Source: Escherichia coli (GTDB lineage: Bacteria > Pseudomonadota > Gammaproteobacteria > Enterobacterales > Enterobacteriaceae). Taken from it: a DNA stretch of 64,000 nucleotides. The DNA lies in the NCBI RefSeq assembly GCF_036507355.1, contig NZ_AP027877.1; one strand, 5' to 3'. The position numbers and the translations under genes were made by a program. Positions 11,713 through 51,280 of the stretch are shown here, one piece after another (within the stretch, counting starts at the first letter, position 1; each line of letters opens with the position of its first letter). The notes under the pieces are model-generated. The model was given only the letters and a program-made list of their open reading frames with translations, did not search any database and was not told where the DNA came from.

Positions 11713-11717
11713 CAACC

Positions 11718-13256: not shown

Positions 13257-13272
13257 CACACGCACCTCTGGA

Positions 13273-15192: not shown

Positions 15193-15528
15193 TTATATAA
15201 TCGCCATCACTTTCCAGGCGAGCCCATAGGCCAGCGCACTAAGCAGTGTTGGGATGATAATGCTGCGTGTTTTATAGAAACTGGCACCCAGTACCGCGAA
15301 GCCGACCAGTGTGGGCACGAAACGGCGTGTATCGTGCATCACTTCTGGTGCGGTAGAGACAACCAGCAGAGCGCATATCGAGGCGATGCCAATGGTGTCG
15401 AGCAAAATACCTACCGCGCCACGTTTGGTTGGGCGGGCATTACCCACACGCAGGCGCAGCGGCAAATAGCGGAAGCAATAATTCGCCGCGCCAACCAGTA
15501 ACCCAAGCAGCAGAACCTCATAGCTCAT
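15193..15528 (-). CDS. ygaH: Branched-chain amino acid exporter small subunit (AzlD-like) YgaH
   Basis: 111-aa hydrophobic ORF overlapping ygaZ. Confidence 0.85.
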
Positions 15529-16255
15529 CGGGCGCTCCTTGCCAGAATGCCTGGATTAACGCAGTGAGGCAGCCACAGACAATGCCTGCCAGAATGGCGA
15601 CGGGAATAGAAAATAGCGTTACGCCTGCAAGGGCACCAACTAACGCTGCGGTAACGCAAAGAGACTGTTTGCGCTGGAAAGAGGCGAGCAGGAAACTCAT
15701 AAAGAGTGCCGGAAGCATAAAACCTAATGCAGCTTCAACGGCGGGATAACCTTGCAGCAAGCCGCTGCCGGAGAATGCCCCTATTACCGTACCAAATACC
15801 CACGATGACCATGAACTGAAGGCAATGCCGATCATCCAGTTCTCGCTCCAGCGGCGATTATTGCGTACCAGTTTTGCGGTGGCGGCGGCAAAAACCTCAT
15901 CCGTCAGGCCAAACGCCCATAGGGCGGTTTTCGATTTTTGCAGACGCTGAATAATACGGCTACGCAGTGACGGGCCATACAAAACATGGCGAACATCCAT
16001 TGCCATGACGGTCAGTGCAGCAACCCACAAACTACTCCCTGCTGCCAGCATCGCGGTAATGACGAACTGGCTCGCGCCTGCATAAATGATGCAGGAGAAA
16101 AAAACGCTTTCGAGAGGAGAGAATCCCAGACGGGTCGCATTCAGACCGAACGCAAAGGCCACCGGAATATAACTAATAACAATCGGTAAACTGTCTTTGC
16201 ATCCTTCCATGAAGGTCGCCGAACCAGGAGCAGGCTGTGGAGTAGGGCTTTCCAT
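15518..16255 (-). CDS. ygaZ: Branched-chain amino acid exporter large subunit (AzlC-like) YgaZ
   Basis: 245-aa membrane ORF upstream of and overlapping ygaH. Confidence 0.85.
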
Positions 16256-16378
16256 AGAGTGTACGCTTAACGATTGTTAATATTATAAATAGACTGAATG
16301 AATATCTTAACCTTATCAGACTGATGGGCTTCTTAACACCCTTATAAGTGTAAAGCCACGAAAACGGTTGCTGATTGC

Positions 16379-17563: not shown

Positions 17564-17664
17564 TATTTTTGTTCATCAGGTGATGATTAAGCTGGAAATC
17601 AATAATAGCGGATGTTGATGAATATGGGATGAAAGATAGATTGTTGAAATGTGCGGTGTGGTTT

Positions 17665-17745
17665 GTAGGCATGATAAGACGCGCCAGCGTCGCATCAGGC
17701 ATTGTGTACAGAACGGCGGATGCGGCGTATACGCCTTATCCGCCC
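17665..17745. repeat. REP (repetitive extragenic palindromic) elements
   Basis: gtaggcatgataagacgcgccagcgtcgcatcaggc and cggatgcggcgtatacgccttatccg palindromic units. Confidence 0.8.
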
Positions 17746-17754
17746 GAATAAAAA

Positions 17755-18747
17755 TTACTTCTGCGCTGCCAACGCCTCATTCACCCAGCCATCGAACTGC
17801 TGCTGGTGGGCTTTGATCCAGCCATCAACGTGGCCCTGAATATCGCCTTCTGAGGCTTTGCCGTCATGCATAATGGCGTTCTGGGCGTTAATATCTGCCA
17901 CTGGCAACTGCATAATGGCAAACAGTTTCGCTGCTGCCGGGTTTTTCTCGGCCCAGGCTTTATTGGCAACGATATGCATGGTGCTGACCGGGAAGCCGTA
18001 ATTCGCGCCATTCGGCAGTTTAGTATCGGCATTTTTATCGCCCGGCAGTGCAGAGAACGGCACCTGCAACCAGACCACATCTTTCCCTGGCTTCAGCTCA
18101 TTACTCACCCAGTACGGCGTCCAGGTGTAGTAAAACACCGGTTTGCCCTCTTTGTAACGACTGATGGTGTCAGCCATCATCGCCGCGTAGTTCCCCTGAT
18201 TATGCGTCACGGTATTGGTCAGTTCATACGCGGCAAGCTGGTGGTTGATCGCACCTTCGCAGCCCCAGCCAGGGTTACAGCCAGTCAAATCCGCTTTACC
18301 GTCGCCGTTGGTATCGAACAGTTTGGCGATCTTCGGATCTTTCAGTTGTGCGATGTTGGTGATTTTGTACTGGTCGGCGGTTTTCTTATCGATCAGGTAA
18401 CCCTGTGCCGCGCCGTTAACAAATACCCCTTCACGATAAAATTTCTTATCGCCACCGGCAGCTTCATACATGTTGTCATGCAGTGGCGTCCAGTTCACGG
18501 CGGTGAAGGTTGCATCGCCGGAAGCAAGCGAGGTGTAGCCAACGTTGTAATCTACTTCGCTGGGTTTGTTGACGGTATAGCCTAATTTCTCCAGCGCACG
18601 GCTGACCAGCAGCGTCTGGAAGGTTTCTTCGGTGATGGTGCTCTGAACTGGATTAACAGTAATGCCTTTGCCCGGCAGATCGGCAGCAAAAGTTTGTGTA
18701 GAGATAAGCGTGGCAAACGCTGTCGCAAAAAGTACGCTATGTCGCAT
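17755..18747 (-). CDS. proX: Glycine betaine/proline ABC transporter periplasmic binding protein ProX
   Basis: ORF ...[35 protein letters not shown]...; start placed at MRHSV. Confidence 0.95.
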
Positions 18748-18803
18748 TGTTATTCCTTTTTTTGGCAGGGTGATATGCCCGGCGTCACCGGGCAAGTGCA
18801 GAG

Positions 18804-19868
18804 TTACTTAATGAATGGGCGGGTCAGCAGACCGACAGGGCCAGTGGTGTACCAGCGACGGTTGCCGCGACTGCGTGAGTCGCGCCCAACGGCCTGCGTC
18901 AGACGATCGAGGATAATGGCGAGGATCACAATCCCGACGCCGCCAACGGTGGCAAGCCCCATATCCAGACGACCGATACCGCGAAGTACCATCTGACCCA
19001 GCCCGCCGACGGCAATCATCGAGGCAATGACCACCATAGAAAGGGCCAGCATCAGCGTCTGGTTAACGCCCGCCATAATGGTCGGCATCGCCAGCGGTAA
19101 CTGAACTTTGAACAGCATCTGGCGCGGGCTGGCACCGAATGAGCGCGAGGCTTCAATCAGATCCGCCGGAACCTGGTTAATCCCCAGAATGGTCAGACGG
19201 ATAATCGGCGGCAGAGCAAAGATGATCGTCACCACCACGCCCGGCACGTTACCGATACCAAATAGCATGACGATTGGCACCAGATAAACAAACGCTGGCG
19301 TGGTCTGCATGGCATCAAGCAGTGGACGAATAATTTTCGCCGCTCGCGGACTTCTCGCCAGCCATATCCCCAACGGCAAACCGATGACGATACAGAACAG
19401 CAGGGCGGTTAACACCAGCGCCAGAGTCACCATTGCCTGCGACCAGGCACCGATTGCGCCGATGGCAATCAGCGAAACCAGCGTCGCCACGCCCATTCCG
19501 ACCCCGGAAATCTGCCAGGCGATGAGAGCGAAAACGATAATCGCCACTGGCGCTGGCATACCCAGCAGCAATTGCTGGAAACCGTTGAGGATATAATCAA
19601 CCGGAACGCGCACGCCCTGGAAGACGGGACGGAAATGGGTAACGACCCAGTCGATCCCTTCAGTGACCCAACTGTCGAGCGGGATCAGCGTTTTATGGAA
19701 CGGATCGAGAATATTAAAATGCTCGACGTTTGGCGCAGGCGTACTGGTCAGCCAGTCAGCACCACCGCCGTCAGTCGGTGCAGTCGTCGGTGTACCCCAG
19801 GCGTCTGCGGATTGCGCGGCACTGTCCGCCGCTGGCGTGGTATCCCACGGATTATTTTGATCAGCCAT
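18804..19868 (-). CDS. proW: Glycine betaine/proline ABC transporter permease ProW
   Basis: 354-aa [28 protein letters not shown]... with ABC permease core. Confidence 0.95.
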
Positions 19869-21063
19869 TATTTACCCCCTCACGATCTAAAGCGCGCAGC
19901 AGCATTCCTTTCGAAATGATGCCGACATACTGTTGGTCCTCGTCGACCACGGGCACCGCACAGGGTGCCTGTCCGACATGAGAGAGCAACTCGCTAAGAG
20001 GCGTTTGTGCATCGACTGCTAACGGCGCATCAATCAGCGCCGCATCAAGACCTTGCTGCTGCGTTAACGCGGTTTTAAGCGAATCGATGGAGACTGCGCC
20101 GACAAACTTATTACCGCGTTCGATAACGTAGCCATATTCGCGATCTTCATCCTGCAATAATTTCAGTGCCGAACGTGGGCCGAAGCCAGGGGTTTTACGA
20201 ATTAAGCCATTCGGTGTCCGGCGGGCAATATCTTTCGCACTGAATACCTGACTAATATCAACGCCACGGAAGAAGGTACGGACATAATCATTCGCCGGAT
20301 TATTGAGAATTTCATCCGGTGTGCCGACCTGTACCACTTCACCATTTTGCATAATGGCAATTCGGTCGCCAATACGCATGGCTTCATCGAGATCGTGGGA
20401 AATAAAGACAATGGTGCGCTGATGTTTCGCCTGTAATTTTACCAGCTCATCCTGCATCTCGGTGCGAATTAATGGATCGAGCGCCGAGAAGGCTTCATCC
20501 ATTAATAAAATATCCGGATTAATCGCTAACGCGCGGGCTAATCCCACACGTTGACGCATCCCGCCAGAGAGTTCATCCGGGTAGCTGTGGGCATAATTTT
20601 CCAGCCCGACCTGACGCAGTGCATCAAGGGCTTTTTCCCGGCGTTCTTCGGCATTAATTCCGGCCAATTCCATACCGAACGCAGTATTGTCCAGCACGGT
20701 CATATGCGGCATTAAGGCAAAGGACTGGAAGACCATCGCAATCTTTTTTCTGCGCACCTCACGGAGTTCGGCATCGGATATTTTGGCAATATCCACACCA
20801 TCAATCAGCACTTGCCCGCGGGTGGGTTCAATCAGGCGATTGAGAAGGCGTACCATTGTGGATTTACCCGAGCCGGATAATCCCATGATGACAAATATCT
20901 CGCCTTCTTCAATGGCCAGACTGGCGTCTTTTACGCCAAGCGATAGCCCAGTTTTTTCCAGAATTTGTTCTTTTGAAAGTCCTTGTTCGATATATTTGAA
21001 CGCTCGCTGTGGATGCTCGCCAAATATTTTATAAAGATTTTTAATTTCTAATTTAATTGCCAT
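19861..21063 (-). CDS. proV: Glycine betaine/proline ABC transporter ATPase ProV
   Basis: 400-aa ORF with Walker [10 protein letters not shown] and C-terminal CBS domains. Confidence 0.95.
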
Positions 21064-21417
21064 GCAATAGAAAGATTCCTGTTATTTGTTTATGTCGATA
21101 TATTACCCAGTGGAAATAGTCACTTTTTTCTACCCTAACATACTGAGAATCTGAGGCAACCCCCGAGGGCAAATGTGGCATGAATATTGATGTGAGCAAA
21201 TCGCCGGAATTTCCCATGATATAAGGGCTGAGAGCAAATCGAGAAAAGTTGATATTTTTTGTCAAAGATAGCAAAAAACGCCTGAATATTGTGGTTTCAG
21301 GCGAATAATGCAACAGAGTATCTGTGTAGATCACCACAAAATATTTGCGTGATAAAAAGCTATTTGGCGGGAATTATTTCCCTGTCGCGGGTAGTGATAT
21401 TTTTGAAAATAACACCC

Positions 21418-22386
<969 letters not shown>

Positions 22387-24531
22387 TTAAAGTGCACAGG
22401 AGATGCAGCCTTCAATTTCAGTGCCTTCCAGCGCCATCTGACGCAGGCGGATGTAATAGAGCGTTTTGATACCTTTGCGCCAGGCGTAAATCTGCGCTTT
22501 GTTGATATCGCGAGTGGTGGCGGTATCGGGGAAAAACAGCGTCAGCGACAGCCCCTGATCGACATGGCGAGTCGCTTCCGCGTAGGTGTCGATGATCTTT
22601 TCTGCGCCGATTTCGTAAGCGTCCTGATATAGCGCCAGATTTTCGTTAGTCATAAACGGGGCAGGGTAGTAAACGCGTCCTGTTTTGCCCTCTTTGCGTA
22701 TCTCTACTTTCGCCACAATCGGATGAATACTCGACGTAGCATGGTTGATATAAGAGATAGAACCGGTTGGCGGCACCGCCTGAAGATTCTGGTTGTAAAT
22801 GCCGTAGCGCATCACGTCGTCGCGCAGTTGCGCCCACATCTCACGGGTAGGTAACGTAATACCGCTACGGGCAAACAGTTCGCCAACTTTCGCCGTTTTC
22901 GGCTGCCAGTTCCCTTGCAGATATTGGCTAAAATATTCACCACTGGCATAGCGTGACTGTTTGAACCCGGCGAAGGTTTCACCGCGTTCGCGTGCCAGCA
23001 ACATCGAGGTACGCAGTGCGTGCCAGGTGATGGCATAGAAATAGAGATTGGTGAAATCCAGTGCTTCCGGCGAACCATAAGCGATGCCTTCTCGCGCCAG
23101 ATAGCCGTGTAAATTCATCTGCCCCAGTCCGATGGCGTGTGAGGCGGTATTTCCGGCTTCGATGGACGGCACGCTGCGGATATGACTCATATCTGATACT
23201 GCCGTTAAACCGCGCACGGCAGTCTCTACCGTGCGGGCAAAATCGGGGGAATCCATGGTGTGCGCAATATTCAACGAACCTAAATTGCAGGAAATATCAT
23301 GGCCTGTGCAGGTATAGTCGAGATTCTCGTCATACTCTGAGGCGCTGTTAACCTGCAAAATTTCTGAGCAGAGATTACTCATATTTATGCGCCCGGCGAT
23401 AGGGTTAGCACGGTTTACCGTGTCTTCATACATGATGTACGGATAGCCGGACTCAAACTGGATTTCTGCCAGTCGCTGGAAGAAATCACGGGCGTTGAGG
23501 TATTTTTTGCGAATGCGTTCATCGGCAACCAGTTCGTCATAGTGTTCGCTAATGGCGATATCGGCAAACGGTTTGCCATAAACTCGCTCTACGTCATAAG
23601 GCGAAAACAGCGCCATCTGCGCATTCTCTTTTGCCAGATGGAAAGTGATATCCGGGATCACCACGCCAAGCGACAGTGTTTTAATGCGGATTTTTTCGTC
23701 GGCATTTTCCCGTTTCGTGTCGAGAAAACGCAGAATATCGGGATGATGAGCATGTAAATAGACTGCACCAGCCCCCTGACGAGCGCCGAGTTGGTTGGCA
23801 TAGGAAAATGCGTCTTCCAGCATTTTCATCACCGGAATTACGCCAGAAGATTGATTTTCAATACGTTTAATTGGCGCGCCCGCTTCCCGCAGATTCGACA
23901 GCAAAAATGCTACGCCGCCGCCGCGTTTCGACAGTTGCAGTGCGGAATTTACCGCCCGACCAATCGACTCCATATTGTCTTCAATACGCAGCAAAAAACA
24001 GGAAACCAGTTCGCCGCGCTGCTGCTTACCGCAGTTGAGGAATGTTGGCGTGGCTGGCTGAAAGCGTCCTGACAGCATTTCATCGGTCAGTTGCAACGCC
24101 AGCGTCTCATCGCCTTGTGCCAGCGTCAGCGCCACCATCGTGACTCGATCGGCAAAATCTTCCAGATAACGTTTACCGTCGAATGTCTTCAACGTATAGC
24201 TGGTGTAAAACTTCCATGCCCCGAGGAATGTCTGGAAACGAAAACCGCTGGTGTGTGCGTGGGCAAACAGCGTAATGACAAAGTCGCGAGAGTAGCGATT
24301 AAGAACGCTTTCATCATAGTAACCTTCGTTGACCAGCCAGTTCAGGCGCTGCTGCTGGCTACTGAAGGTCACACTGTTCGGACGCACATGCGTCGCAATA
24401 AAGGCGTCAACGGCCTGGCGGTCTTTATCGAACTGAATGCGACCTGCGCTATCGTAGAGGTTAAGCATCGCATTCAGCGCGTGGTAATCCATCGTTTCCT
24501 GCGTCAGGCATTCTGCGGTTGTCGTTGCCAA
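22387..24531 (-). CDS. nrdE: Class Ib ribonucleotide reductase alpha subunit NrdE
   Basis: 714-aa ORF ending in the EGCISCAL redox tail. Confidence 0.95.
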
Positions 24532-24911
24532 AATTCGGTTACTCCTTTACGAACGTTTTCGATATCGCTTTGCGTACCCATGAGTTCAAAACGGTACAGC
24601 CACGGCACGCCGCATTTCCGGGCAATCACATCTCCGGCGCGGCCATACGCCTCACCAAAGTTGCGATTACCAGAAGCAATAACGCCGCGAAGCAACGCCC
24701 GGTTGTGCTCGTCGTTTAAAAAGCGAATTACCTGTCGTGGCACCGCGCCAGCCGTACCGCCGCCGTAAGAGGGCACGATCAGGATGTAAGGCTCGTCTAC
24801 CTGAATCCGTTCCCGCTCATTGAGCGGGATGCGCACCGCGGGCAGCCCTAAACGTTCGATAAAACGCTGCGTATTTTCGGAGCTGCTGGAAAAGTAGACG
24901 AGCTGGCTCAT
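24504..24911 (-). CDS. nrdI: Flavodoxin-like NrdI
   Basis: 135-aa [33 protein letters not shown]... Confidence 0.93.
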
Positions 24912-25153
24912 GCACTGGCCGCGTGTGGCGCTGGATGCAGACGATTGATCATGTCCGGGCGGAAACCAGACCAGCTAAGATCGCCTGCAATCACTACCGG
25001 CAACTGACGAAAGCCCTGAGCACGCAACGCTTCCGCCGCTTCAGGAACGCGATCGACATTAATCATTTCAAAATCAAAGCCCCGGTTTTCCATCGCCCGT
25101 TTGGTGGCGTGGCACTGAACGCAATCGTTACGAGTGTAAATGGTAATGCGCAT
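24908..25153 (-). CDS. nrdH: Glutaredoxin-like NrdH
   Basis: 81-aa [37 protein letters not shown]... with CVQC redox motif. Confidence 0.95.
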
Positions 25154-25361
25154 GATTCGTATTTCCGTTTAAAATGAAGATACGGCGCGATGATACGCGT
25201 CGGGTTGTCTCTCTGTTGATACAGAGATACTAGATGTAGTTGAAAAAAGATTCAACCACACAAGATATGGGAATTTTAGATTGATTTCGCCACCGGTGAA
25301 TGGCTCAACGGGGAAGGGGATTTTGTGTTTTTTTGCCGGGCGCATACCCGGCAACAGCAAA

Positions 25362-25793
25362 TTACATCCGCATGGAAACGGCCAGACGGTTAAAACAATT
25401 CATCAGCCCGATGGCAAACGTTAAGTCGCTGATTTCTGCTGCGCTGAAATGCTCAAGCAAAGGCTGATAAGCCTCGTCTTCCGCATGGGTTCTGGCAATA
25501 TCGGTCACTGATTCCGCCCATGCCAGCGCCGCTCGCTCGCGTTCATCAAAATGATGGCTTACGCGCCAGCCTGCCAGGGCGTCCAGTTTGTGTTGTGGCA
25601 CACCGGATTTGCGCAATGCTTTGCTGTGCATCTCCAGACAAAATGCGCAGCCGTTGATTTGCGAGACGCGCAAATAAATTAACTCCATCAACGTGGTATC
25701 CAGCGTGCTATTTTCCAGTGCCGTTTTGGCCTGCACCAGTGTGTTATACACTGCCGGGCTAAGTTCGTAGTAAGGCTGACGTAATGTAGTCAT
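25362..25793 (-). CDS. Carboxymuconolactone decarboxylase family (AhpD-like) protein
   Basis: 143-aa ORF with CxxCxxxH signature in SQINGCAFCLEMHS. Confidence 0.75.
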   Translation of the reverse strand: MTTLRQPYYELSPAVYNTLVQAKTALENSTLDTTLMELIYLRVSQINGCAFCLEMHSKALRKSGVPQHKLDALAGWRVSHHFDERERAALAWAESVTDIARTHAEDEAYQPLLEHFSAAEISDLTFAIGLMNCFNRLAVSMRM

Positions 25794-25880
25794 ACAGTTT
25801 CTCCTCTTATTAACGCCCGCAATGTAGCACTATAATGGACTGCTAAAGAGAGCCATAAATTACCTAAAAAAGCAGACCAT

Positions 25881-27215
25881 ATGCCACGTTATCAGGATAT
25901 CGCCCGTCAGTTAAAAACGGCTATTGAGCAAGGAGAACTGAAACCTGGCGCAAGGCTACCCTCGAGCCGTACCTGGTCGCAGGAGCTGGGTGTCTCTCGA
26001 TCCACTGTCGAAAATGCTTATGCTGAGCTGGTGGCGCAGGGATGGCTGGTCAGGCGGGGACAGGCGGGTACCTTTGTCAGTGAGCAGATACATCCGCAAC
26101 AGTCTGCTGTGGATGTCGTGGCTTTTGCTGGTGAAAGTCAGCAGCCGCTGCCTTTTCAGATGGGGCTACCTGCACTTGATCTTTTTCCGCGTGAATTGTG
26201 GGCGCGGGTGATGGGCCGCCGTCTGCGTACCCAGACGCGTTTTGATTTGGCATTAGGCGATGTCTGCGGCGAGGCGGCCTTGCGCGAGGCTATTGTTGAT
26301 TATTTACGCGTTTCACGTGGGATTGATTGTCAGCCAGAGCAGGTCTTTATCACTCACGGTTATGCGGCCTCAATGGCTTTAATTCTGCACGCTCTGGCGC
26401 AACCGGGAGACGGGATGTGGATGGAAGATCCCGGCTTTCCGCTGATTCGCCCGATTGTCACTCGCCACGGTATGGAAATTTTACCTGTGCCGGTTGATGA
26501 CAACGGACTGGATGTCACAAGCGGAATACAAAATTATCCTGATGCGCGTTTTGCCCTGATTACTCCGGCACACCAAAGCCCGCTGGGTGTGGCACTCTCT
26601 TTAGCGCGTAGGTATCAGATACTGGAATGGGCAGAGCGTAGTCAGGCATGGATTATTGAAGATGATTACGACAGTGAGTTTCGCTATCACGGTAAGCCGT
26701 TACCGGCACTAAAAAGTCTCGACGCGCCGCAGCGGGTGATTTATGCCGGAACATTCAGCAAAGCGCTATTTCCTGCATTGCGCTGTGCGTGGCTGGTGGT
26801 GCCGGTGGAGCAGATTTCGCAATTCCGGCAGCAGGCGTCACTGGAACCATGTGCTGTACCCGTACTGTGGCAGAACACACTGGCAGATTTCATCCGTGAG
26901 GGGCATTTCTGGCGGCATCTGAAGAAAATGCGCCAGCATTATGCCCAGCGACGGCAGTGGATTGAGCAGGCACTTACGCAGCAGGGATTTCAGGTTGTGC
27001 CGCAAAAAGGCGGTATCCAGATGGTGATCAAACTAGCAGGTAATGACGTGACATTCGTGCATAAAGCCAATGCTGCTGGTCTTGCCGTACAGGCACTTAG
27101 CGACTGGCGTATCCGCTCAAGCGAGGACGGAGGATTATTGCTCTCGTTTACGAATATCGTTAGCGAAAGTATGGCGCGACAGGTAGCACAGCAATTGCGC
27201 AGTGCTTTAAATTAA
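25881..27215 (+). CDS. MocR/GabR-family transcriptional regulator (GntR wHTH + PLP aminotransferase-like domain)
   Basis: 444-aa ORF; N-terminal RLPSSRTWSQELGVSRSTVENAYAELVAQGWL; C-terminal fold-type I region with GTFSKALFP (candidate PLP lysine). Confidence 0.8.
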   Translation: MPRYQDIARQLKTAIEQGELKPGARLPSSRTWSQELGVSRSTVENAYAELVAQGWLVRRGQAGTFVSEQIHPQQSAVDVVAFAGESQQPLPFQMGLPALDLFPRELWARVMGRRLRTQTRFDLALGDVCGEAALREAIVDYLRVSRGIDCQPEQVFITHGYAASMALILHALAQPGDGMWMEDPGFPLIRPIVTRHGMEILPVPVDDNGLDVTSGIQNYPDARFALITPAHQSPLGVALSLARRYQILEWAERSQAWIIEDDYDSEFRYHGKPLPALKSLDAPQRVIYAGTFSKALFPALRCAWLVVPVEQISQFRQQASLEPCAVPVLWQNTLADFIREGHFWRHLKKMRQHYAQRRQWIEQALTQQGFQVVPQKGGIQMVIKLAGNDVTFVHKANAAGLAVQALSDWRIRSSEDGGLLLSFTNIVSESMARQVAQQLRSALN

Positions 27216-27364
27216 TAACCCCGAAGCCAGGCTTCGGGGTCCTATAAGACTGGTGACCAGGGCAAAATCCCCTGATGCGCTATGTTTTTCAGGCCTGTAG
27301 GCGGACAAGGCGTTGACGCACTGAGTACTTTTCAGAAGTCAGGCTACTGCTTGTCATCGTCTCA

Positions 27365-39460: not shown

Positions 39461-40307
39461 TTACAAATAGAGATAGTTCGGCAGTTCTCCTGTTTTCCCT
39501 AAAAGAAGAGCGCTACGCCCAGGAATGTTGATATTTAGAGTTCCGCCTTTAAGCGTAAATACTTTACCAGGGGGAATACTTTTGCGTGTATTATTAATAA
39601 TAATGTTAACGCTATTACTCCCCATATTTTTATATATTCCTGGTTGCAATTTGTTAGGCCAGGTACCTTCAATTTCTTCGTTTCCTTTATTTATTATAAC
39701 TAGTCCGTCATGAGGAGAGTGATTAATATTCACAGAATCCCCACGACTAAAGACCAGAATGTTTTTAGTTGCAAATACACCCTCAAATGCGCTCCATATT
39801 CCTTCTTTATCTATATATAATGCGTGGAATTCATTGTAGAGCTGCTGATAGGTAGAGCAACCTTTATTAAGCCACGCCCACCGCCGACACGCGTGGACCC
39901 ATCATCATTTTTAATCTCAGTCGTTGATTTTAATACCTGACCATCCCAGTAAACTAAAGGCCTGCTGAACGGGAGAGCGGCCATATATGCCATTGCTAAT
40001 TGTTCATCTTGTTGATGGTTAAATAGAAAGTCATTGAAAAGATTGCCATTGTTAGGAAAATCGTGGTTAATGTTAATCAATATCCGTCTTTCTGATGGGA
40101 TGCTTGAGATTGTGGAACCCGGTTTTGATGCAAGGGTTTGGAGATCGCCACCAAATGAAAAGGCTTTTATCGTCTTCATGAGCAATGAAAAATCAATGGC
40201 GCTTAAATCATCTCTTTCATAAAGTAGCGATGACATTTGTTGTTCATCCAACTGGCAAGTTACCAGATATTCCATGTAATTCATAACGGCTTTTTCATGA
40301 TATTTTG
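39461..40307 (-). pseudogene. Downstream fragments of an alpha-amylase-like (ygaQ-like) gene, separated from the 5' part by IS1
   Basis: Two short minus-strand ORFs (39461..39733 and 39811..40284) in different frames continuing the gene interrupted at 40308. Confidence 0.55.
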
Positions 40308-41075
40308 GGTGATGCTGCCAACTTACTGATTTAGTGTATGATGGTGTTTTTGAGGTGCTCCAGTGGCTTCTGTTTCTATCAGCTGTCCCTCCTGTTCAGC
40401 TACTGACGGGGTGGTGCGTAACGGCAAAAGCACCGCCGGACATCAGCGCTATCTCTGCTCTCACTGCCGTAAAACATGGCAACTGCAGTTCACTTACACC
40501 GCTTCTCAACCCGGTACGCACCAGAAAATCATTGATATGGCCATGAATGGCGTTGGATGCCGGGCAACAGCCCGCATTATGGGCGTTGGCCTCAACACGA
40601 TTTTACGTCACTTAAAAAACTCAGGCCGCAGTCGGTAACCTCGCGCATACAGCCGGGCAGTGACGTCATCGTCTGCGCGGAAATGGACGAACAGTGGGGC
40701 TATGTCGGGGCTAAATCGCGCCAGCGCTGGCTGTTTTACGCGTATGACAGGCTCCGGAAGACGGTTGTTGCGCACGTATTCGGTGAACGCACGATGGCGA
40801 CGCTGGGGCGTCTTATGAGCCTGCTGTCACCCTTTGACGTGGTGATATGGATGACGGATGGCTGGCCGCTGTATGAATCCCGCCTGAAGGGAAAGCTGCA
40901 CGTAATCAGCAAGCGATATACGCAGCGAATTGAGCGGCATAACCTGAATCTGAGGCAGCACCTGGCACGGCTGGGACGGAAGTCGCTGTCGTTCTCAAAA
41001 TCGGTGGAGCTGCATGACAAAGTCATCGGGCATTATCTGAACATAAAACACTATCAATAAGTTGGAGTCATTACC
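40308..41075 (+). mobile_element. IS1 insertion sequence, copy 1 (768 bp, with target-site duplication)
   Basis: Starts ggtgatgctgccaacttactgat, ends ...gttggagtcattacc; insA-like ORF 40363..40638 and insB-like ORF 40557..41060; flanked by atattttg direct repeats (40300..40307 and 41076..41083). Confidence 0.95.
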
Positions 41076-42488
41076 ATATTTTGGGTTAAATAAGTTAGTG
41101 TTGTGTAATCGCTCATTATAATTTTTAAGCGGTGGGGTTATTGATCTTTCTATTTGTTCATGTTTTGAGTGTTTTGCTGCATCATAACGTAAACCTCGTA
41201 CGCCATATTTTCGCATTTCACGAACGTATTGATTTTGCAGCATAATAACCTGGTCACTTTTGGGGGTTGTTTTAGGCATTCCATTTAAACGCTTTTCTTT
41301 TAATGCATGGAGGTTTTCCCATTCATCCTTAGAGATGTTATCTTTACTTGCTTCGAAGTCTTTTGCAGTGAGATGTATATCTTCTGGATGGATTTGTTTA
41401 CGTTCTTTTGTTACTGGATCGATAATAAATGGAACCAAAACCTGACCTTGCCAATAGCCAGGGATACCACCTTCTATATCTTTACTGATCTTCGCTCGTA
41501 TATCAGCAGAGGGATAATCCAGGTCATTTTTACCACTACCCCCGATTCCCATAAAGTTAAAGGTATAATCAGGAATGATATCGATACCAAATTTTTTAGC
41601 ATCTTTAACCAATGCGATAAAATCCTGCAAATCTCCCATTGGATTATGGATGGTACAAAGATCTTCGGGTTGATAAGCGTGAAACCAGTAACCTTTTTCT
41701 TCTTCGGGAGTTTCTGGTCCGTCGGCACGGAAAGTTGTCACTGGAGGGATTTGTATATACCCATAATGGCAACGTGCAAATTCAGACATATTTTCTCTGA
41801 TTTGCTGGTAGGTGGCATTAAAAGCATGAAGAATCGCTTCGCCAGGTTTTTTGGGGGTGATGATTTCACATTGTGATTTCTGAACAGCAGTAAGAGATTT
41901 ACGCTCAAGTGTTTGCCGTAGATGTTCTGGATTGATTAGTATTTTAAATGTTTCTTGCTGTCCGGAAGGTGACGTCACGTTAATATTATATACATCGGCT
42001 GCCAGCTCATAGTCAGGAATGTTAATAGCATATGCAACATATTTATCTTTTGGGGAGGGTTTGTCAGATATAATGTGGGTGAAATGTTCAGCAGGACCAT
42101 ACTGGTGAACCCCCTTGTTATCTTCTCTTTCATTCATTGTATCTCTTTGATAAATCCATGTTTTTCCTTCTCCTATCCTGTCTGGCGCTGTAATACTACG
42201 CTGTGCAGCTTTATTCAGTTCACGGTAAGTTGTATCTGGAAAAAGGGAAATTTTATAATCGTTTTTTAACAGATCATTAATGATTTTTTCTGCGTGAAAA
42301 GTTGATATAATTTCTCTGTCTTTTAAATCCTGAGGATAAACTCCACAAGCATTAATAATATTTGTTACACAGTTTAGATATTCTAATGTATTTAATTTGG
42401 AATTTAGATCCCCGTCAGTAATGTTCCATGATAACAATGTGGGGTTGTCGATAGGTAAATTTCTTGGTCCTGGTTTTATAGAAAACAT
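41076..42488 (-). pseudogene. 5' portion of alpha-amylase-like (GH13, ygaQ-like) gene disrupted by IS1
   Basis: ORF 40995..42488 carries GH13-like motif GVRGLRYDAAKH; its last ~27 codons read into IS1. Confidence 0.7.
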
Positions 42489-43047
42489 AATAACGTTCCT
42501 CTAATGGTAGAGTAATATGATGTATACGGAGACATAAAAATGTTTAATTGTTGTGAAAGTAATTGCAAACAGATGTCCTATTTTTATCCAATATTTATAT
42601 GGAAAAGGATAATGCTTAAATCTGTTTTTTTAATTATCGATGTGGTCTGGAGAGGCAACTGTCAAAAATCGCTCATACGAAACTAATTATTAGCAGAATA
42701 AGTTCTATAAAAGAATATATTGCTATATGAAGTTTATTTTTATGGAGTGAAAAGTAACAGATATCATAATGATGCGAAAACTCTTCAGTTAATGTAATAA
42801 ACTTATATTATTAGATACAAAATCATTACAAAGTATCATTGAATCGATGATAACTATAGACAGTGTTAATTATTAACATTTGCTTGTTGACTGCGAGTAT
42901 CGACTTTGCGAATGGAGGCGATGTCGGGTTTTATGTCGCATGTATTGACGACCCAGGATGGATGAGAACGCATAAAAATCTGTTATTTACATCATAAGAT
43001 CATCATGTTTATTGCGTGGTTTATAAGTATTGTTATTGCATACTTAA

Positions 43048-43123
43048 GGCCCTTTAGCTCAGTGGTTAGAGCAGGCGACTCATAATCGCTTGGTCGCTGG
43101 TTCAAGTCCAGCAGGGGCCACCA
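43048..43123 (+). tRNA. ileY: tRNA-Ile2 (anticodon CAU/lysidine type)
   Basis: 76-nt ggccctttagctcagtggttagagcaggcgactCATaatcgcttggtcgctggttcaagtccagcaggggccacca. Confidence 0.9.
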
Positions 43124-43873
43124 AATCATCATTCATGTATCAGGAAGAGTTAAGGGTACAAGGGGTACTCGATGGCGGTCTATATTTCATGACTAACGCC
43201 ATTTAAAGGAAGAAGTGCGGTGGGTGGTTTCGAATGAGGGCTGGTGTTTTGGTACGTGGCACGCCACTGCAATGTATTTATCCATCAGTACTCATTCAAA
43301 AGTACCTGGAAAAAATGCCCGCTATGCCAAGCGGGCAAATTGCTTACATGTGGAATTAAGTAATTAACGATAAAGCCAGAGTATTATCATTTATTATACC
43401 CATTCATTTAATCAGGTTAATTACTCAAATCACTGAACTATTCTCTGTTCGCTCACTGATGATGAGTGAGTACCACAACCAATGTATTAGAACAATGCCG
43501 TAGAGTAAGGATGAAATGTCTCTACCACACCTTAAACATCTACTACTGACTAGAACACCCGCCGCAGGTAGATGAGTTTTGTGAGCGTTACAGGAGCGTG
43601 GCTATGCTCATTAACCAACGCTATTGAGATATAAATTTCTAACACTTGAAAAACGATTTTCACTAATAAATTATAACGGGTGTTTTTTATCATACAGCGA
43701 AATAACTTTTTGTTTATTAAATTTAACATTCTTGTGCTAATTTAATTAAAAAGTCCATGCGTAGCATGTGAAGCAGTTAATGCCAGCAATTGTCTCAAAT
43801 GAGCGATTTTTTATAGTGACAAACAATAATAACATTAAAAATAGCCATGTAGACATTAACTGAGGAATAGACA

Positions 43874-45223
43874 ATGTTAATTAATAAAAGCAACGGATTT
43901 AACGCTAGCGCAGTTTTGGGTAGTGGAAATTATAATGAAAATAAATCTTCTAAACACATGGAGCTACTAGCTCATAGTATTGTAAAATTAATTTGTAAGG
44001 AAGCTGCATCAGAGACGTATCGCGGTGCTCTTGAAACTTTACAAAAAATGATGTCTGAATGTAAATATAAAGAAGGCAACGCCTTTGTCATTATGGGTGC
44101 TGGAGGGCAATTAAAACGTATTAAATATGATGTTGATGAAAATAAATTAAAAATATTCAACATATACTTTGATAATAATTACGAGGTAGTTACTGATGGT
44201 GAGCCTGACGTAGTATGTTTAAGCAAGCAGGTCTGGGAAAATCTTCTCATTAAATTAAAACCGGAGATTAAAGAAAATGTGTTTTCTGAAAATAACAAAT
44301 TATCGAGAGAAAATAATGTTGATCAGTATGTTCAATCCGCTAAAAGAAATGAACAGGCCCTTTTCGATAATATAATAAAAAGTGATTTTCATGTTGCTTC
44401 ACTTCAGCCAGGTAGAACACGTAGTGTTATTTCAGAAACGCCGCCAAATGACTGTATGGAATCACGTAATTCATATGAAAACCAAATAGATGAGATTTCA
44501 TCTTTGTCAGAGTCAAAGGAACACCCTATAGATATTCAAGAAAAAACAGATGCGTTTGTGAATGAGTTCAAGGGGATATTATTTGATCAAAATGGAAGGT
44601 CTTCAGAGTTTCTACTTAATTTTTATGAATGTTGCTATGTGTTTTTACCAAGAGCGCAGCCTCAGGATAAAATCGAAAGCTATAATTCAGCACTGCAAGC
44701 TTTTTCCATCTTTTGTTCATCTACGTTGACACATAATAATATAGGCTTTGATTTCAAATTATTTCCAGAAGTCAAGCTGTCTGGAGAACATCTTGAAACG
44801 GTATTCAAATACAAAAATGGCGATGATGTCCGGGAGATAGCCAAAATTAACATTTCTCTCCAAAAAGAAGAGGGTGGTTTATATAATTTACGTGGATTGG
44901 ATTTTAAGGGATGCTTCTTTTCTGGACAGAACTTCAGTAACTATGATATTCAATACGTGAACTGGGGAACGTCATTGTTTGATGTTGATACTCCGTGTAT
45001 TTTTAATACGCCTGCTAACAATGAGAGTTATGAAAAATCATTAAAACCTGTAAGCGAAAACGGTTTAAATGGAGTCTTATCTGATCGTATTAAAAAAATA
45101 AAAATGATCACGGGTGTGGCACCATTCGATGATATTTTATTTATGGATGATGACTTTGATGATAACTCCCCTGAGGATGGTCCCGTTGAGAATATTCCTG
45201 TTATGAATAGTCCTCTTGTATAA
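43874..45223 (+). CDS. Hypothetical protein, AT-rich, with C-terminal pentapeptide-like repeats and acidic tail
   Basis: 449-aa ORF; visibly AT-rich; NLRGL/DFKGC/FFSGQ/NFSNY/DIQYV/NWGTS pentad periodicity; ends MDDDFDDNSPEDG; hairpin ggggctacgttttcatgtaacccc ~150 bp after the stop. Confidence 0.6.
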   Translation: MLINKSNGFNASAVLGSGNYNENKSSKHMELLAHSIVKLICKEAASETYRGALETLQKMMSECKYKEGNAFVIMGAGGQLKRIKYDVDENKLKIFNIYFDNNYEVVTDGEPDVVCLSKQVWENLLIKLKPEIKENVFSENNKLSRENNVDQYVQSAKRNEQALFDNIIKSDFHVASLQPGRTRSVISETPPNDCMESRNSYENQIDEISSLSESKEHPIDIQEKTDAFVNEFKGILFDQNGRSSEFLLNFYECCYVFLPRAQPQDKIESYNSALQAFSIFCSSTLTHNNIGFDFKLFPEVKLSGEHLETVFKYKNGDDVREIAKINISLQKEEGGLYNLRGLDFKGCFFSGQNFSNYDIQYVNWGTSLFDVDTPCIFNTPANNESYEKSLKPVSENGLNGVLSDRIKKIKMITGVAPFDDILFMDDDFDDNSPEDGPVENIPVMNSPLV

Positions 45224-45649
45224 AGTTCTAAAAGCAGTTTTCAATGATAAATAAATGGCTATTTTTACGAAGAGATAATAACGTAGATTGAAACAATATG
45301 TATTATTGATTGAGTAAATGGGATTATTCTTCACACTACATCCATTTTAGTGTCACTACCAAAGAAAAAGGGGCTACGTTTTCATGTAACCCCTTGATTT
45401 ATTTGGTGGGCTGGCAGTGACTGAATTGGTGCTGTAATTGGTTGAAATATTTCATCTAATGTCTGGTTCAACTTTCCTTAGCTGCCTGAAAGTTTTTTGA
45501 TCTCACCCAGTAATAACAGCGTTACGGTGCACCACGCCTGACTGAAGAACTGCGTGCTCAGGGTTACCACTTCAACGTAAAACCGTGGCAGGAGGTCCGG
45601 ACTGAAAAAACTGCTCAGGACATCATCGGCAGGGAACGCACTGCTAGTC

Positions 45650-45830
45650 TGTAAACTGAACCGACTGGGGCGCAGTATGTGGCATCTTGTCGTGCTGTTG
45701 GAGGAGCTGTGCGAACGTGGTATTAACTTTCGTGCTCTGGCCCAATCTATATTTGCCCAACAATGGGGGGACGAATGCTGTAAAAGTAAAACAATCTGCG
45801 ATCTCAAAGTTATTGTGTGATTTTTATGTG
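45650..45830 (+). pseudogene. Remnant of a Pin/Hin-type serine invertase (pinH-like)
   Basis: Translated fragment [37 protein letters not shown] resembles the invertase core (...WKLDRLGRS...RGI.F.SL...); frame breaks upstream. Confidence 0.55.
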
Positions 45831-46149
45831 AGCAGAAGATATTCATCAGAAACGATTATGTAAATCATTTTATTTTGCCAACGGCCTCATTGTCGAAAGA
45901 AAAGAATACGCCCGTGTTTCCTGAATAGATTGACTTTTTTATCTAACCACACTTCAGCGCACTGCGTTTAAAAAATGCCTCATTCTTATGCGGAATATCA
46001 TCATTTCATCATGATGTCTTTGATGAGCGGTGAACACAATACACTTGCGCTGTCTCTTCAGGATGAATCCCCTGGTCTGGTGCCTGTGGGCTGATGTTGC
46101 AGCAAAGCTAAGGTCGCTTAAACGCTACTCAGTATTCACTTTTCAGAGG

Positions 46150-47653
46150 ATGAAATTTATGAACAGGACCAGTCCCTATTATTTTCGCCGCTCAGTACTT
46201 TCCTTATTGATATCTACCTTAATATATGCCCAGCCCGGGATGGCGGCCTTCACTACTAATGTTATTGGTGTGGTAAACGATGAGACTGTAGATGGCAACC
46301 AACGAGTAGATGAACGAGGTACAACAAATAACACTCATATTATCAACCATGGCCGGCAGGAGGTCTATGGTGGGATATCTAATAGTAGTATTATTGAAAC
46401 TGGTGGCGAGCAACTAGTATCAATCCATGCCGATATTAACGGGCAAGCTAATAATACAACCATTAATGGAGGCAGACAGTCAATTGAGTACGGAGGAATT
46501 TCTACTAGCACGATAATCGAAAGTGGCAATCAATATGTTCATAAAGGTGGTACCAGCAATGACACGACAATTAAGGGCGGTACTTCACGCATAGAGGGGG
46601 GGACTGCAAATGGAACAATCATTGATGGTGGTAGCCAACAAGTAACAACTCAGGGGCATGTTGACGGTACAACGATAAATAAGTCTGGCTCTCAGGACGT
46701 AGTACAAGGAAGTCTGGCAACGAACACAACCATAAATGGTGGTCGACAGTATGTTGAACAGAGCACAGTAGAAACAACAACCATTAAAAATGGCGGTGAG
46801 CAAAGAGTATATGAGAGCCGTGCGCTGGACACGACGATTGAAGGCGGAACTCAGTCTCTGAATAGTAAGTCAACGGCAAAAAATACACAGATCTATTCTG
46901 GTGGCACGCAAATTGTTGATAACACCAGCTCCTCGGATGTTATTGAAGTTTATTCCGGTGGCGTGCTTGATGTTAGTGGTGGTACGGCAACAAATGTTAC
47001 CCAGCACGATGGTGCAATTTTAAAAACTAACACTAACGGTACGACGGTGAGCGGTACGAATAGTGAAGGTGCATTCTCCATCCACAATCACGTGGCAGAC
47101 AATGTGTTGCTGGAAAACGGTGGTCATTTAGACATAAACGCATATGGTTCGGCAAACAAGACGATTATTAAAGATAAAGGAACAATGTCAGTTTTAACCA
47201 ATGCTAAAGCTGATGCGACCCGAATAGATAATGGCGGGGTTATGGATGTTGCAGGAAACGCGACAAATACCATAATTAATGGTGGCACACAGAATATTAA
47301 TAATTATGGCATAGCCACAGGCACCAATATCAACAGCGGAACGCAAAATATCAAAAGCGGCGGGAAAGCTGACACAACAATTATATCCTCCGGGAGCCGG
47401 CAGGTTGTTGAGAAAGATGGTACGGCAATTGGCAGCAATATTAGCGCCGGAGGCTCGCTGATTGTCTATACCGGCGGTATTGCACATGGGGTTAACCAGG
47501 AGACGGGCAGTGCTTTAGTTGCCAACACGGGTGCAGGGACTGATATCGAAGGATACAACAAGCTCTCTCACTTCACTATTACCGGAGGGGAGGCTAATTA
47601 TGTTGTGCTGGAAAACGCTGGCTCATTAACAGTCGTCACTGGTTCCCGGGCAG
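46150..47653 (+). pseudogene. Autotransporter-adhesin passenger domain (ypjA-like), truncated by IS1
   Basis: Signal peptide MKFMNRTSPYYFRRSVLSLLISTLIYAQPGMA then repeated ...TTINGGRQ...GGT.. motifs; reading frame runs directly into the IS1 left end at 47654; no beta-barrel domain. Confidence 0.75.
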
Positions 47654-48421
47654 GGTGATGCTGCCAACTTACTGATTTAGTGTATGATGGTGTTTTTGAG
47701 GTGCTCCAGTGGCTTCTGTTTCTATCAGCTGTCCCTCCTGTTCAGCTACTGACGGGGTGGTGCGTAACGGCAAAAGCACCGCCGGACATCAGCGCTATCT
47801 CTGCTCTCACTGCCGTAAAACATGGCAACTGCAGTTCACTTACACCGCTTCTCAACCCGGTACGCACCAGAAAATCATTGATATGGCCATGAATGGCGTT
47901 GGATGCCGGGCAACAGCCCGCATTATGGGCGTTGGCCTCAACACGATTTTACGTCACTTAAAAAACTCAGGCCGCAGTCGGTAACCTCGCGCATACAGCC
48001 GGGCAGTGACGTCATCGTCTGCGCGGAAATGGACGAACAGTGGGGCTATGTCGGGGCTAAATCGCGCCAGCGCTGGCTGTTTTACGCGTATGACAGGCTC
48101 CGGAAGACGGTTGTTGCGCACGTATTCGGTGAACGCACGATGGCGACGCTGGGGCGTCTTATGAGCCTGCTGTCACCCTTTGACGTGGTGATATGGATGA
48201 CGGATGGCTGGCCGCTGTATGAATCCCGCCTGAAGGGAAAGCTGCACGTAATCAGCAAGCGATATACGCAGCGAATTGAGCGGCATAACCTGAATCTGAG
48301 GCAGCACCTGGCACGGCTGGGACGGAAGTCGCTGTCGTTCTCAAAATCGGTGGAGCTGCATGACAAAGTCATCGGGCATTATCTGAACATAAAACACTAT
48401 CAATAAGTTGGAGTCATTACC
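47654..48421 (+). mobile_element. IS1 insertion sequence, copy 2 (768 bp, no target-site duplication)
   Basis: Same sequence and orientation as copy 1 (identical InsA/InsB translations); flanks cccgggcag / gaggttttg do not match. Confidence 0.95.
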
Positions 48422-49239
48422 GAGGTTTTGTTATATATGTTGTTTCCAATATATTTTTCATTTGTCAAAATTTGATGTATTTTTGCACGAGTCCATAATG
48501 TTCCATTTTCTGCAGGTATGTTCTGTTCATTTAATCTCTCAGCAATAATGAATTCTGGGACGTTATTATCTATAAAGAGATCATATATTCTATTTACAAT
48601 TTTTATTTCATTTTTTGGTCCCGGAATTAATATTACCCTATCTGTTTGAATACTCTTTCTTTTGCGGAAACTCAATATTTCTTTAGCTATGCCATTTTCG
48701 TCTACTAAAAGACGTCTCAGCCCATAACCAGCCATACCGCCTTGATGATAACCAAGCTTTATTAAATTTACTTGCCCTATAAATACCTTTTCAGATAGAT
48801 TCCTGCTGTGATATGCAGCACTAGATCTTTTTATATTCAGTATAACAGAGGACTCTAAAGGGAAATCTTTAGTGGGTATAGGTTCGGAACAATATATAAG
48901 ATCTACACCATTTCTCTCAAATAGAAAGGAATAATATGCCGCTTCATCACTATTTTGAAAACGACCAAAACGGCTCACATCATAAAATAATACAGCCTGT
49001 ATATCTATTTTCTTTTGTTCTACATCGCTAAGTAACTGCTGCAAAGAATGCCTGCCTACGATACTGACTCCGCTCTTACCTGCATCATCGTAGGTATAAG
49101 CGATTTCCATATTGTTCTTTTCAGCATAATCTTTGATATATTCGGACTGATTATGTAAAGAATATTGCTGATGGTCGGTAGACATCCTCAAGTACTGCGC
49201 GACCCTAACTCTATGATTTTTTTCATTTTCGCTAGCCAT
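48422..49239 (-). pseudogene. Large serine recombinase, C-terminally truncated by IS1
   Basis: N-terminal resolvase catalytic motif VAQYLRMSTDHQ and following recombinase-domain sequence; ORF ends inside IS1 after ~272 codons; AT-rich. Confidence 0.7.
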
Positions 49240-49521
49240 GCACGAAACCTCATGGATGATTCAATACAATGTAGTGGATAAAATTGATCAAATTTTAACC
49301 GAATTCAACTGTTTTATCATTGATTAGAGCGAATTTGGTAGATCTTCGAGGTGTATGATAATCGAGAAGAGATGTGAATTATTTAGCTGATATGACCGAC
49401 AGCTTTCGTTATGTGGACTCAATGTCCCCATTTGTAAATGGCTATGCTTAGTCCACATAGGTTAATGGTGTGATTATTAATTCTTTAACTAAATCAAGAT
49501 AGTTAATCCATCATGGGAGAG

Positions 49522-50751
49522 TTATGCGGCAATAACTTTGCATTTTTGAGACGAAACATAGTCACTCCACCATTGCATGAGAACCACCCGTTCAGTGAGA
49601 TACTCTGCACGATTGTAGGCTGCAATTATTTCATCTTTCTTCGAGTGGGCAAGGGCGGCTTCTAAGACATCAGTCCTAAACTTGCCAGACTCCTCAGCAG
49701 CCGTTCTAGCAATGGATCGCATACCGTGAGCTACAAGCTCACCTCCGAAACCCATACGGATTATGGCCGCATTAGCTGTTTGTTCATGCATGTGATTGAG
49801 TGGAGCTTTGATACTGGGGAACACCCACTCTCTATGCCCGCTGATGACTTTCATTAAATCCAAAACTCGCAAAGCTTCTTTGCTCAGTGGAACTTTGTGA
49901 GGCTTCTTCATTTTCATAAACTCCGCCGGGATGTTCCACATGCCAGTTTCAATATCAATATCTGACCATCTTGTGCGAACAGCTTCACCTGGGCGAACCC
50001 ATGTGAGAAGTTGCCACTCAATCAGTAGCCTTGTTTCCAAACGGATAGAAGCATTGTTTAGAGCAACCAAGAAGCGAGGGAGTTCGGAAGGGGGTAATGC
50101 TGGCATATTCTGTTTTTTTGGCTTGCTGAACCGTTGCCCCAGGTTGTCTGCCGGGTTGAATTCTATGAGTTCTTCTGTTGCTGCATAGCGGAAAATTTCA
50201 TTCAGGCGGGATATGATGCGGCGAAGTGTTTCAAGGACACCTCGTTTTTCTATGGGTTCTAAATGCTGTTTAAGCATTTTAGGGCGAATCTCCTTAATTG
50301 GGGTATCACCCAATGTGGAAAAGATATTTCTCTCTAGGCTTCGCCAGATGTCGTTAGCATGATCTTGGGAGATGCCTGACGTTTTGACTTTCTCATCAAG
50401 CCACTTCTTGGCTACTGCTTGAAATGTATGTTCCGTGGCATCTTTCAGTGCATTGGCTTTTTGGTTGTTATGAACTTGGGGGTCTATACCATTTGTAAGC
50501 AACGACAAGTATTCATCACGTAAAGCTCGTGCCTTCGCAAGTGTAAGGTGAGGATAGGTTCCTAAGCTCACCTTAGTTCGCTTTTTGGTCACAGGCACTG
50601 CATATCTGAAATACCAATTTTTCTTCCCTCCCTTCGCCAGGGGAGCGATTCGCAACAGCAAACCATCGCCGTCAAAAAGGTTAACCTCTTTTTCGGCAGG
50701 TTTGGTGCTTTTGATTTCAGTGTCAGTGAGCTTCTTAGCGATTTTGGCCAT
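49522..50751 (-). CDS. P4-type tyrosine integrase adjacent to tmRNA
   Basis: ORF ...MAKIAKKLTDTEIKSTKPAEKEVNLFDGDGLLLRIAP...WYFRY...; C-terminal catalytic domain (HGMRSIARTAAEE); 166 bp from the ssrA 3' end. Confidence 0.88.
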   Translation of the reverse strand: MAKIAKKLTDTEIKSTKPAEKEVNLFDGDGLLLRIAPLAKGGKKNWYFRYAVPVTKKRTKVSLGTYPHLTLAKARALRDEYLSLLTNGIDPQVHNNQKANALKDATEHTFQAVAKKWLDEKVKTSGISQDHANDIWRSLERNIFSTLGDTPIKEIRPKMLKQHLEPIEKRGVLETLRRIISRLNEIFRYAATEELIEFNPADNLGQRFSKPKKQNMPALPPSELPRFLVALNNASIRLETRLLIEWQLLTWVRPGEAVRTRWSDIDIETGMWNIPAEFMKMKKPHKVPLSKEALRVLDLMKVISGHREWVFPSIKAPLNHMHEQTANAAIIRMGFGGELVAHGMRSIARTAAEESGKFRTDVLEAALAHSKKDEIIAAYNRAEYLTERVVLMQWWSDYVSSQKCKVIAA

Positions 50752-50917
50752 GTTTGGGACCCTCGATTTTAGGACCCATCTTCGTGGGTCCCATTCAGGG
50801 TGCCATAACTCGTAGTTCTCAGCAATTCTCACTAGACTACAATAGACGTAAAAAAGCCCGCAGAGCTTGTGCTGTGCGGGCTTAGTAGACTTTACTGAAC
50901 TTCAGTACATCAATATT

Positions 50918-51280
50918 TGGTGGAGCTGGCGGGAGTTGAACCCGCGTCCGAAATTCCTACATCCTCGGTACTACATGCTTAGTCAGTCTTTACATTCGCT
51001 TGCCAGCTGCGGACGGACACGCCACTAACAAACTAGCCTGATTAAGTTTTAACGCTTCAACCCCAGGCAGGGCTTCCACGCGATCTCTTTTGGGTTTGAC
51101 CTCTCTTGATCCCCGTCCTAAGAGCGGAGGCTAGGGAGAGAGGGCTCTAAGCAGGTTATTAAGCTGCTAAAGCGTAGTTTTCGTCGTTTGCGACTATTTT
51201 TTGCGGCTTTTTACGAGGCCAACCGCCCCTCGGCATGCACCTTGGGTTTCGCAAATCCCGTCGAATCCAGAATCAGCCCC
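50918..51280 (-). ncRNA. ssrA: tmRNA (SsrA)
   Basis: Minus-strand reading starts ggggctgattctggattcgacggg and ends gttcaactcccgccagctccacca; encodes tag peptide ANDENYALAA (gcaaacgacgaaaactacgctttagcagct); 363 nt. Confidence 0.95.

Follow-up and report, generated by a model that had tools for sequence, protein, structure and literature searches.

An IS1 copy without target duplication marks a probable deletion between ypjA and the ssrA-linked genomic island of Escherichia coli

The proneness of IS1 to adjacent deletions is well established. In Shigella, the gene-loss "black holes" represent deletions formed by recombination between IS copies, which leave the same end product. Target duplications missing from the flanks of IS elements frequently result from adjacent deletions or from IS–IS recombination, and in the long-term evolution experiment all 14 of the 14 traced IS-associated deletions were adjacent deletions (PMC11708052). 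The window analyzed here, i.e., the whole stretch of 64,000 nucleotides from the E. coli contig NZ_AP027877.1, harbors at 47654–48421 an IS1 copy lacking such a duplication and separating a truncated adhesin gene from a truncated recombinase gene. The initial annotation had explained this arrangement by an IS1-mediated adjacent deletion or by inter-IS1 recombination; the observation was confirmed, and the interpretation is supported by the collinearity of the two flanks in intact relatives and by the junctions, both of which are flush with the IS1 ends (see below).

The element (47654–48421, plus strand) is a complete IS1A-like IS1 of 768 bp, recognized by its terminal repeats, reading frames, and identity to other copies. 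Its termini start with GGTGATGCTGCC and end with GGAGTCATTACC; in a longer extract, the element opens with GGTGATGCTGCCAACTTACTGAT and closes with ...AAGTTGGAGTCATTACC. It carries the imperfect terminal inverted repeats of ~23 bp by which membership in IS1 is recognized (GGTGATGCTGCCAACTTACTGAT / GGTAATGACTCCAACTTATTGAT), with IRL at 47654–47676 and IRR ending at 48421. The insA (47709–47984) and insB (47903–48406) frames are joined by the A6C programmed frameshift motif TTAAAAAAC, which is located at IS1 position 305 and begins at 47958. The sole other IS1 within the window, at 40308–41075, lies in the same orientation and is 100% identical to it base for base. Identity to the copies annotated as IS1A-family in E. 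coli strains ST540 and 2452 is 99.3–99.7%, and the copies annotated as IS1A in strain 2452 are 99.7% identical to the IS1 of the window.

The 9-bp flanks of this IS1 differ (left cccgggcag vs. right gaggttttg), exactly as had been claimed, to the base, and a direct repeat of 7–11 bp, sought around 47654–48421 at every offset, was not found. The missing target duplication leaves the identity of the element as an IS1 untouched. Both junctions are formed by the exact, intact termini of IS1, as is characteristic of a deletion scar: at the left one, the ypjA sequence CACTGGTTCCCGGGCAG passes directly into GGTGATGCTGCC, and at the right one, GGAGTCATTACC passes into the recombinase sequence GAGGTTTTGTTATATATG. 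A complete IS1 lying flush at both junctions argues for transposase chemistry or an exchange between IS copies and not for random breakage.

To the left of the element, the 5′ fragment of the ypjA/ehaD autotransporter adhesin gene (46159–47653, plus strand) contains passenger repeats only. The frame beginning at the start codon at 46159 comprises 498 codons, and its stop is a TGA formed inside the left end of IS1 (47656–47658), whereas the intact gene, listed by thousands of E. coli genomes under the name "adhesin-like autotransporter YpjA/EhaD", is 4581 nt (1526 codons) long. The fragment matches only the models of passenger repeats (Ag43, AIDA-I, and strand-loop-strand repeats); the beta-barrel characteristic of YpjA/EhaD members, together with the rest of the 3′ 2.8 kb of the gene, is absent from the window. 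The ypjA of the window is a gene fragment and not a functional member of the autotransporter family. The initial annotation rightly described a frame running into the IS1 end after about 500 codons with no beta-barrel, but these are not the first 500 native codons, the fragment having suffered an internal deletion of 285 bp (see below); the IS1 junction falls at native ypjA nt 1780, in codon 593 of 1526. In the intact gene, the left flank is followed by TTGACACGA, and the continuation of ypjA beyond the junction reads TTGACACGATTATT.

To the right, the gene order is as follows: recombinase fragment, intact integrase, and then ssrA. The first of these (48422–49239, minus strand) is the 5′ fragment of a gene annotated as "recombinase family protein", the intact form of which comprises 1557 nt and encodes 518 aa; 818 nt, i.e., 272 codons plus 2 nt, are retained, in line with the earlier description of a large serine recombinase cut after about 272 codons. 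Its frame reads on for 7 codons into the right end of IS1, to 48400; the upstream recombinase sequence reads TTTAATTTAGAT. The intact homolog from strain D2 (518 aa) contains an N-terminal catalytic Resolvase domain at residues 14–152 (E 1.4e-21) and a Recombinase domain at residues 210–312 (E 1.2e-21), with a long C-terminal region behind them, and the combination of these domains in a 518-aa protein identifies it as a large serine recombinase; the product encoded in the window stops at residue 272, within the Recombinase domain. Next comes the P4-type tyrosine integrase belonging to the ssrA island, which is intact (49522–50751, minus strand, 409 aa), followed by ssrA itself (tmRNA; 50918–51280, minus strand), the proximal attachment site of the island. 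The DNA at 48422–50900, the integrase included, is 100% identical to many E. coli genomes.

The two flanks were compared with E. coli D2 (NZ_CP010137.1) and NT1F10 (NZ_CP075462.1), in which both ypjA and the island are intact. Each flank is 100% identical to its own gene, ypjA or the recombinase, and in D2, NT1F10, and 2452 the two lie collinearly, with unchanged order and orientation, as is to be expected at a deletion scar. In D2, the left junction maps to locus position 9160 and the right one to 19491, with 10,330 bp between them; in NT1F10, the flanks are separated by ~13.8 kb. Judging from these relatives, the DNA lost at the IS1 probably amounted to about 10–14 kb. The absent interval encompasses ypjA nt 1781–4581 (codons 594–1526), a spacer of 163 bp after the ypjA stop, the distal boundary of the island (attR) along with all of its cargo and both ParB genes, and nt 819–1557 (the 3′ half) of the recombinase gene. 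A search for the deleted genes and DNA elsewhere within the window found none of them. Only the integrase and the recombinase fragment are left of the island, which bears out the earlier claim that most of the ssrA-linked island had been removed, leaving the integrase plus fragments; the extent of the deletion had to be refined, as it also crosses the island boundary into the chromosomal ypjA. The same mapping excludes the later decay, through point mutations, of the 9-bp duplication of a simple IS1 insertion. Decay of this kind is a general possibility (PMC11708052), and its probability at this locus is negligible: the flanks stem from different genes situated 10 kb apart in intact relatives, each of them is 100% identical to its gene, and the native continuation of the left flank, TTGACACGA, is not recombinase sequence.

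The island belongs to a family occupying ssrA in about 590 of the 5426 complete E. coli genomes and displaying a common layout, i.e., integrase, serine recombinase, two ParB-family genes, and variable cargo. In locus coordinates, the ssrA island spans 12125–21986 in D2, 5108–17330 in ST540, 10681–27229 in 2452, and 12416–26663 in NT1F10. The cargo depends on the strain: D2 possesses a SIR2-family gene (PADLOC PDC-S25), ST540 and 2452 a type I restriction-modification system, and NT1F10 other genes. The integrase, the large serine recombinase, and the two ParB-family genes constitute the conserved core of the island, and the cargo is swappable. NACHT and primase-helicase genes are listed in another strain carrying this island family. 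The recombinase–ParB–ParB set was also considered as a known defence system and rejected: PADLOC gave no match for the recombinase or the first ParB, and for the second ParB it returned only a weak match, to a type II methyltransferase model.

An ssrA 3′-end repeat of at least 12 bp, sought as the distal mark of the island, was not found, and the boundary was set by the comparison of K-12 with D2. Their identity extends to 163 bp beyond the ypjA stop, and they diverge exactly at the K-12 psaA, the ssrA 3′-end repeat that marks the end of CP4-57 in K-12; this point of divergence places the distal attachment site inside the deleted interval. Since that site was lost, the remaining 2.5-kb island stump (the integrase plus half of the recombinase) is predicted to be no longer able to excise. 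CP4-57 had been put forward as the reference island, which proved wrong: the alignment of the flanks to K-12 reveals a shared integration site alone. CP4-57 sits in the same slot, delimited by ssrA and by the psaA repeat at ~160 bp from the ypjA stop, and likewise encodes a P4-type integrase. However, its integrase is 47.7% identical to that of the window at the protein level, its DNA shares a single 33-bp match with the island of the window, and it lacks the serine recombinase and the ParB genes. CP4-57 is thus a different island family, its gene content not being shared with the island considered here; the appropriate references are genomes like D2 and NT1F10.

The left flank bears a second lesion, an in-frame deletion of 285 bp (95 codons) in ypjA, with the junction at 47605–47615 (plus strand) formed by the 11-bp repeat GTGCTGGAAAA; the deletion stops 38 bp short of the IS1, and the sequence across its junction reads ATGTTGTGCTGGAAAACGCTGG. 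In the alignment with D2, the window matches up to its position 47615 the D2 locus up to 8837, and from 47600 on it matches D2 from 9107, the missing segment corresponding to D2 locus 8838–9122. All 2763 of the 2763 complete E. coli genomes covering this stretch match it in two pieces spanning 405 bp, which indicates that the 285-bp deletion occurs in the window alone; in no reference are the final 100 bp of ypjA before IS1 contiguous. Because 38 bp of native sequence remain before IS1, the chemistry of adjacent deletion is unable to make this lesion. Its simplest reading is a separate slippage or microhomology decay of an already dead gene. The G in CCCGGGCAG, which differs from D2, was considered as a mutation linked to the junction and rejected; it is a normal allele, shared by XJ34 and E6474.

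The closeness of the two lesions could also be understood as the outcome of one complex repair event: after a double-strand break in ypjA, resection and repair would have generated the large deletion as well as the 285-bp one with its microhomology, an IS1 being captured in the break without duplication. A unique deletion between 11-bp repeats situated only 38 bp from the IS1 end is consistent with such an event. De novo IS insertions without duplication at the center of large deletions have been reported, and a break-capture model has been proposed for IS5 and IS481, where it is still a hypothesis (PMC11708052). We regard this explanation as very unlikely here, since two independent events in an already dead gene fit equally well and nothing ties the 285-bp lesion and the IS1 deletion in time. 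Should it be true, the locus would represent a natural-isolate IS1 case of the mechanism proposed in PMC11708052.

A change of ancestry at the IS1, i.e., imported DNA with IS1 as the crossover, was rejected as well, there being no discontinuity tied to the junction. Identity to D2 is ~95.7% on the left side and ~99.3% on the right side; the left region is a fine mosaic, in which identity to D2 in 500-bp windows ranges from 90% to 100%. Both sides are ~98–99% identical to XJ34, and the 500 bp adjoining IS1 are 100% identical to D2 and XJ34. For positions 14000–38000 of the window, the closest of the 5426 complete E. coli genomes is 98.6% identical, and the whole backbone to the left of IS1 (14000–47600) likewise does not exceed 98.6% identity to any of them; the backbone to the right of ssrA displays ~99% identity to common strains.

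Several other features of this backbone were recorded. The tRNA cluster at 5398–6029, in which one tRNA-Ser(GCT) precedes four tRNA-Arg(ACG), is the serV–argV array, normal for this region. The ypjCB gene (43874–45223) is a single uninterrupted frame of 449 codons, as in XJ34; elsewhere it is split into ypjB and ypjC (K-12) or contains an internal stop (several reference strains). Between ypjCB and ypjA, in the region of the pinH remnant, 86 bp at 45505–45589 are 89.5% identical to part of IS3 and seem to be the remnant of an earlier IS element.

The first IS1 copy of the window (40308–41075, plus strand) provides an internal control: a simple insertion has placed it in the ygaQ-like alpha-amylase pseudogene, which it splits into two minus-strand ORFs (39811–40284 and 40995–42488), and its flanks at 40300–40307 and 41076–41083 represent a normal target duplication of 8–9 bp, ATATTTTG(G). 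As this copy keeps its own duplication, an exchange of flanks or an inversion between the two IS1 copies of the window was rejected. The region 40308–48421, at whose ends the two identical copies stand as direct repeats 6.6 kb apart, has a composite-transposon-like arrangement; located inside the 6.6 kb are the 5′ part of ygaQ, the tRNA-Ile(CAU) gene ileY (43048–43123), ypjCB, and the ypjA stump. With two identical direct copies around them, ileY, ypjCB, and the ypjA stump are open to further deletion.

Similar IS1-bounded deletions or rearrangements were documented at the same locus in other strains (coordinates are those of the respective loci). In ST540 (NZ_CP007391.1), the IS1 at 4310–5077 connects the ileY side with hsdR directly, ypjCB and ypjA being gone. 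Strain 2452 (NZ_CP031833.1) carries an IS1 at 9940–10707 where ypjA is cut at nt 2055 (vs. native nt 1780 in the window), and an internally deleted copy at 12204–12938, the right flank of which reproduces the hsdR junction of ST540. In NT1F10, an IS1 lies at 18645–19412 within the cargo region of the island. In TKEC21-59 (NZ_CP092452.1), where the IS1 lies at 11433–12200, nothing of the island but the integrase and a recombinase gene cut at nt 1409 (vs. nt 818 in the window) remains, beside a truncated ypjC. None of these copies is flanked by a target duplication, whereas normal duplications were found in 5 of the 10 other IS1 copies examined at these loci. All the breakpoints differ, which indicates that the scars are independent events.

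These findings also bear on a possible artefact of assembly, in which two real IS1 copies with 10–14 kb between them were collapsed and the interval was dropped. The IS1 copies, at 100% identity, exceed the length of short reads, and neither junction occurs in any other assembly searched. Nevertheless, we consider an artefact unlikely: the flanks are true neighbors in the correct order and orientation and not a random join, closed genomes of other strains carry real scars of a like kind at the locus, the identical copy 6.6 kb away was resolved with a proper duplication, and the window contains the deleted genes nowhere else.

The scar itself is regarded as real, and two routes to it deserve serious consideration. 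By adjacent deletion, an IS1 would first have inserted in the interval, either within the ssrA island, in its AT-rich serine recombinase gene, or in ypjA, so that either flank may represent the original insertion site. Intramolecular replicative transposition from this resident IS1 into a second site on the same chromosome would then have eliminated all the DNA from the IS1 end to the new target, which is the classic "adjacent deletion" of IS1. A single complete IS1 would be left with flanks originating from different places and hence with no target duplication, and in the end both the adhesin gene and the recombinase would be dead, a 2.5-kb stump of the island remaining with an intact integrase.

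By the other route, RecA-type homologous recombination would have operated between two direct IS1 copies, one in ypjA and one in the recombinase gene, yielding a single IS1 whose left flank derives from the first copy and whose right flank derives from the second, and the interval would be gone. The two insertions would need the duplications CCCGGGCAG (the ypjA copy) and GAGGTTTTG (the recombinase copy), and the expected reciprocal precursor junctions are GGAGTCATTACC followed by CCCGGGCAGTTGACACG and TTTAATTTAGATGAGGTTTTG followed by GGTGATGCTGCC. Taken by itself, the sequence appears to fit adjacent deletion and direct IS1 × IS1 recombination equally, and since the two IS1 copies of the window are 100% identical, a hybrid IS1 would not be recognizable. 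States with multiple IS1 do exist in the same interval: strain 2452 possesses five copies or fragments from ypjA to ParB, and NT1F10 possesses two. Other genomes have an IS1 in ypjA or in the recombinase gene at other positions, the window itself contains two identical direct copies 6.6 kb apart, and IS–IS recombination is listed among the frequent causes of missing duplications (PMC11708052). Against this route, two independent insertions in the same orientation are required before the exchange, and the collections searched contain neither of the precursor junctions.

The search for precursors covered the 5426 complete E. coli genomes, species-representative genomes, and metagenome contigs. 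In these three collections, neither junction of the window was found as a single-piece match, and a precursor, i.e., an IS1 at either junction with its duplication, was likewise not detected. Look-ups of exact proteins found no record identical to the truncated recombinase, the truncated YpjA, or the YpjCB product. One resident copy is enough for adjacent deletion and IS1 is known for its proneness to it, so we lean slightly toward this route and tentatively assign it a little short of an even chance; IS1 × IS1 recombination is retained as a credible, if less probable, alternative.

The scar is the reason to annotate ypjA/ehaD and the serine recombinase gene as pseudogenes, and it accounts for the reduction of the ssrA island to a 2.5-kb stump with an orphan integrase. 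Any defence cargo of the island has been lost as well, SIR2 or type I restriction systems being present at this place in relatives. Taken with the four other strains and their independent scars, the locus identifies the ypjA–ssrA interval as a recurrent target of IS1-driven erosion. Beyond annotation and the history of the strain, its importance is small.

Compared with the known systems, the locus shares with IS1 adjacent deletions the single complete IS, the lack of a duplication, the contiguity of formerly distant DNA, and a loss in the kilobase range; it differs from them in that the event in the window is inferred from its end product alone. With the IS–IS recombination deletions of the E. 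coli long-term evolution experiment it has in common the single IS bordered by the outer flanks of two copies, although in the present interval a two-copy precursor was seen only at other sites (2452 and NT1F10). Parallel cases are the scars of TKEC21-59, ST540, and 2452, which affect the same ssrA island family and the same neighboring region, ileY–ypjCB–ypjA. Overall, the junctions of the window are unique, the kind of event is already known, and the process is an ordinary, recurrent IS1-driven erosion of a genomic-island hotspot.
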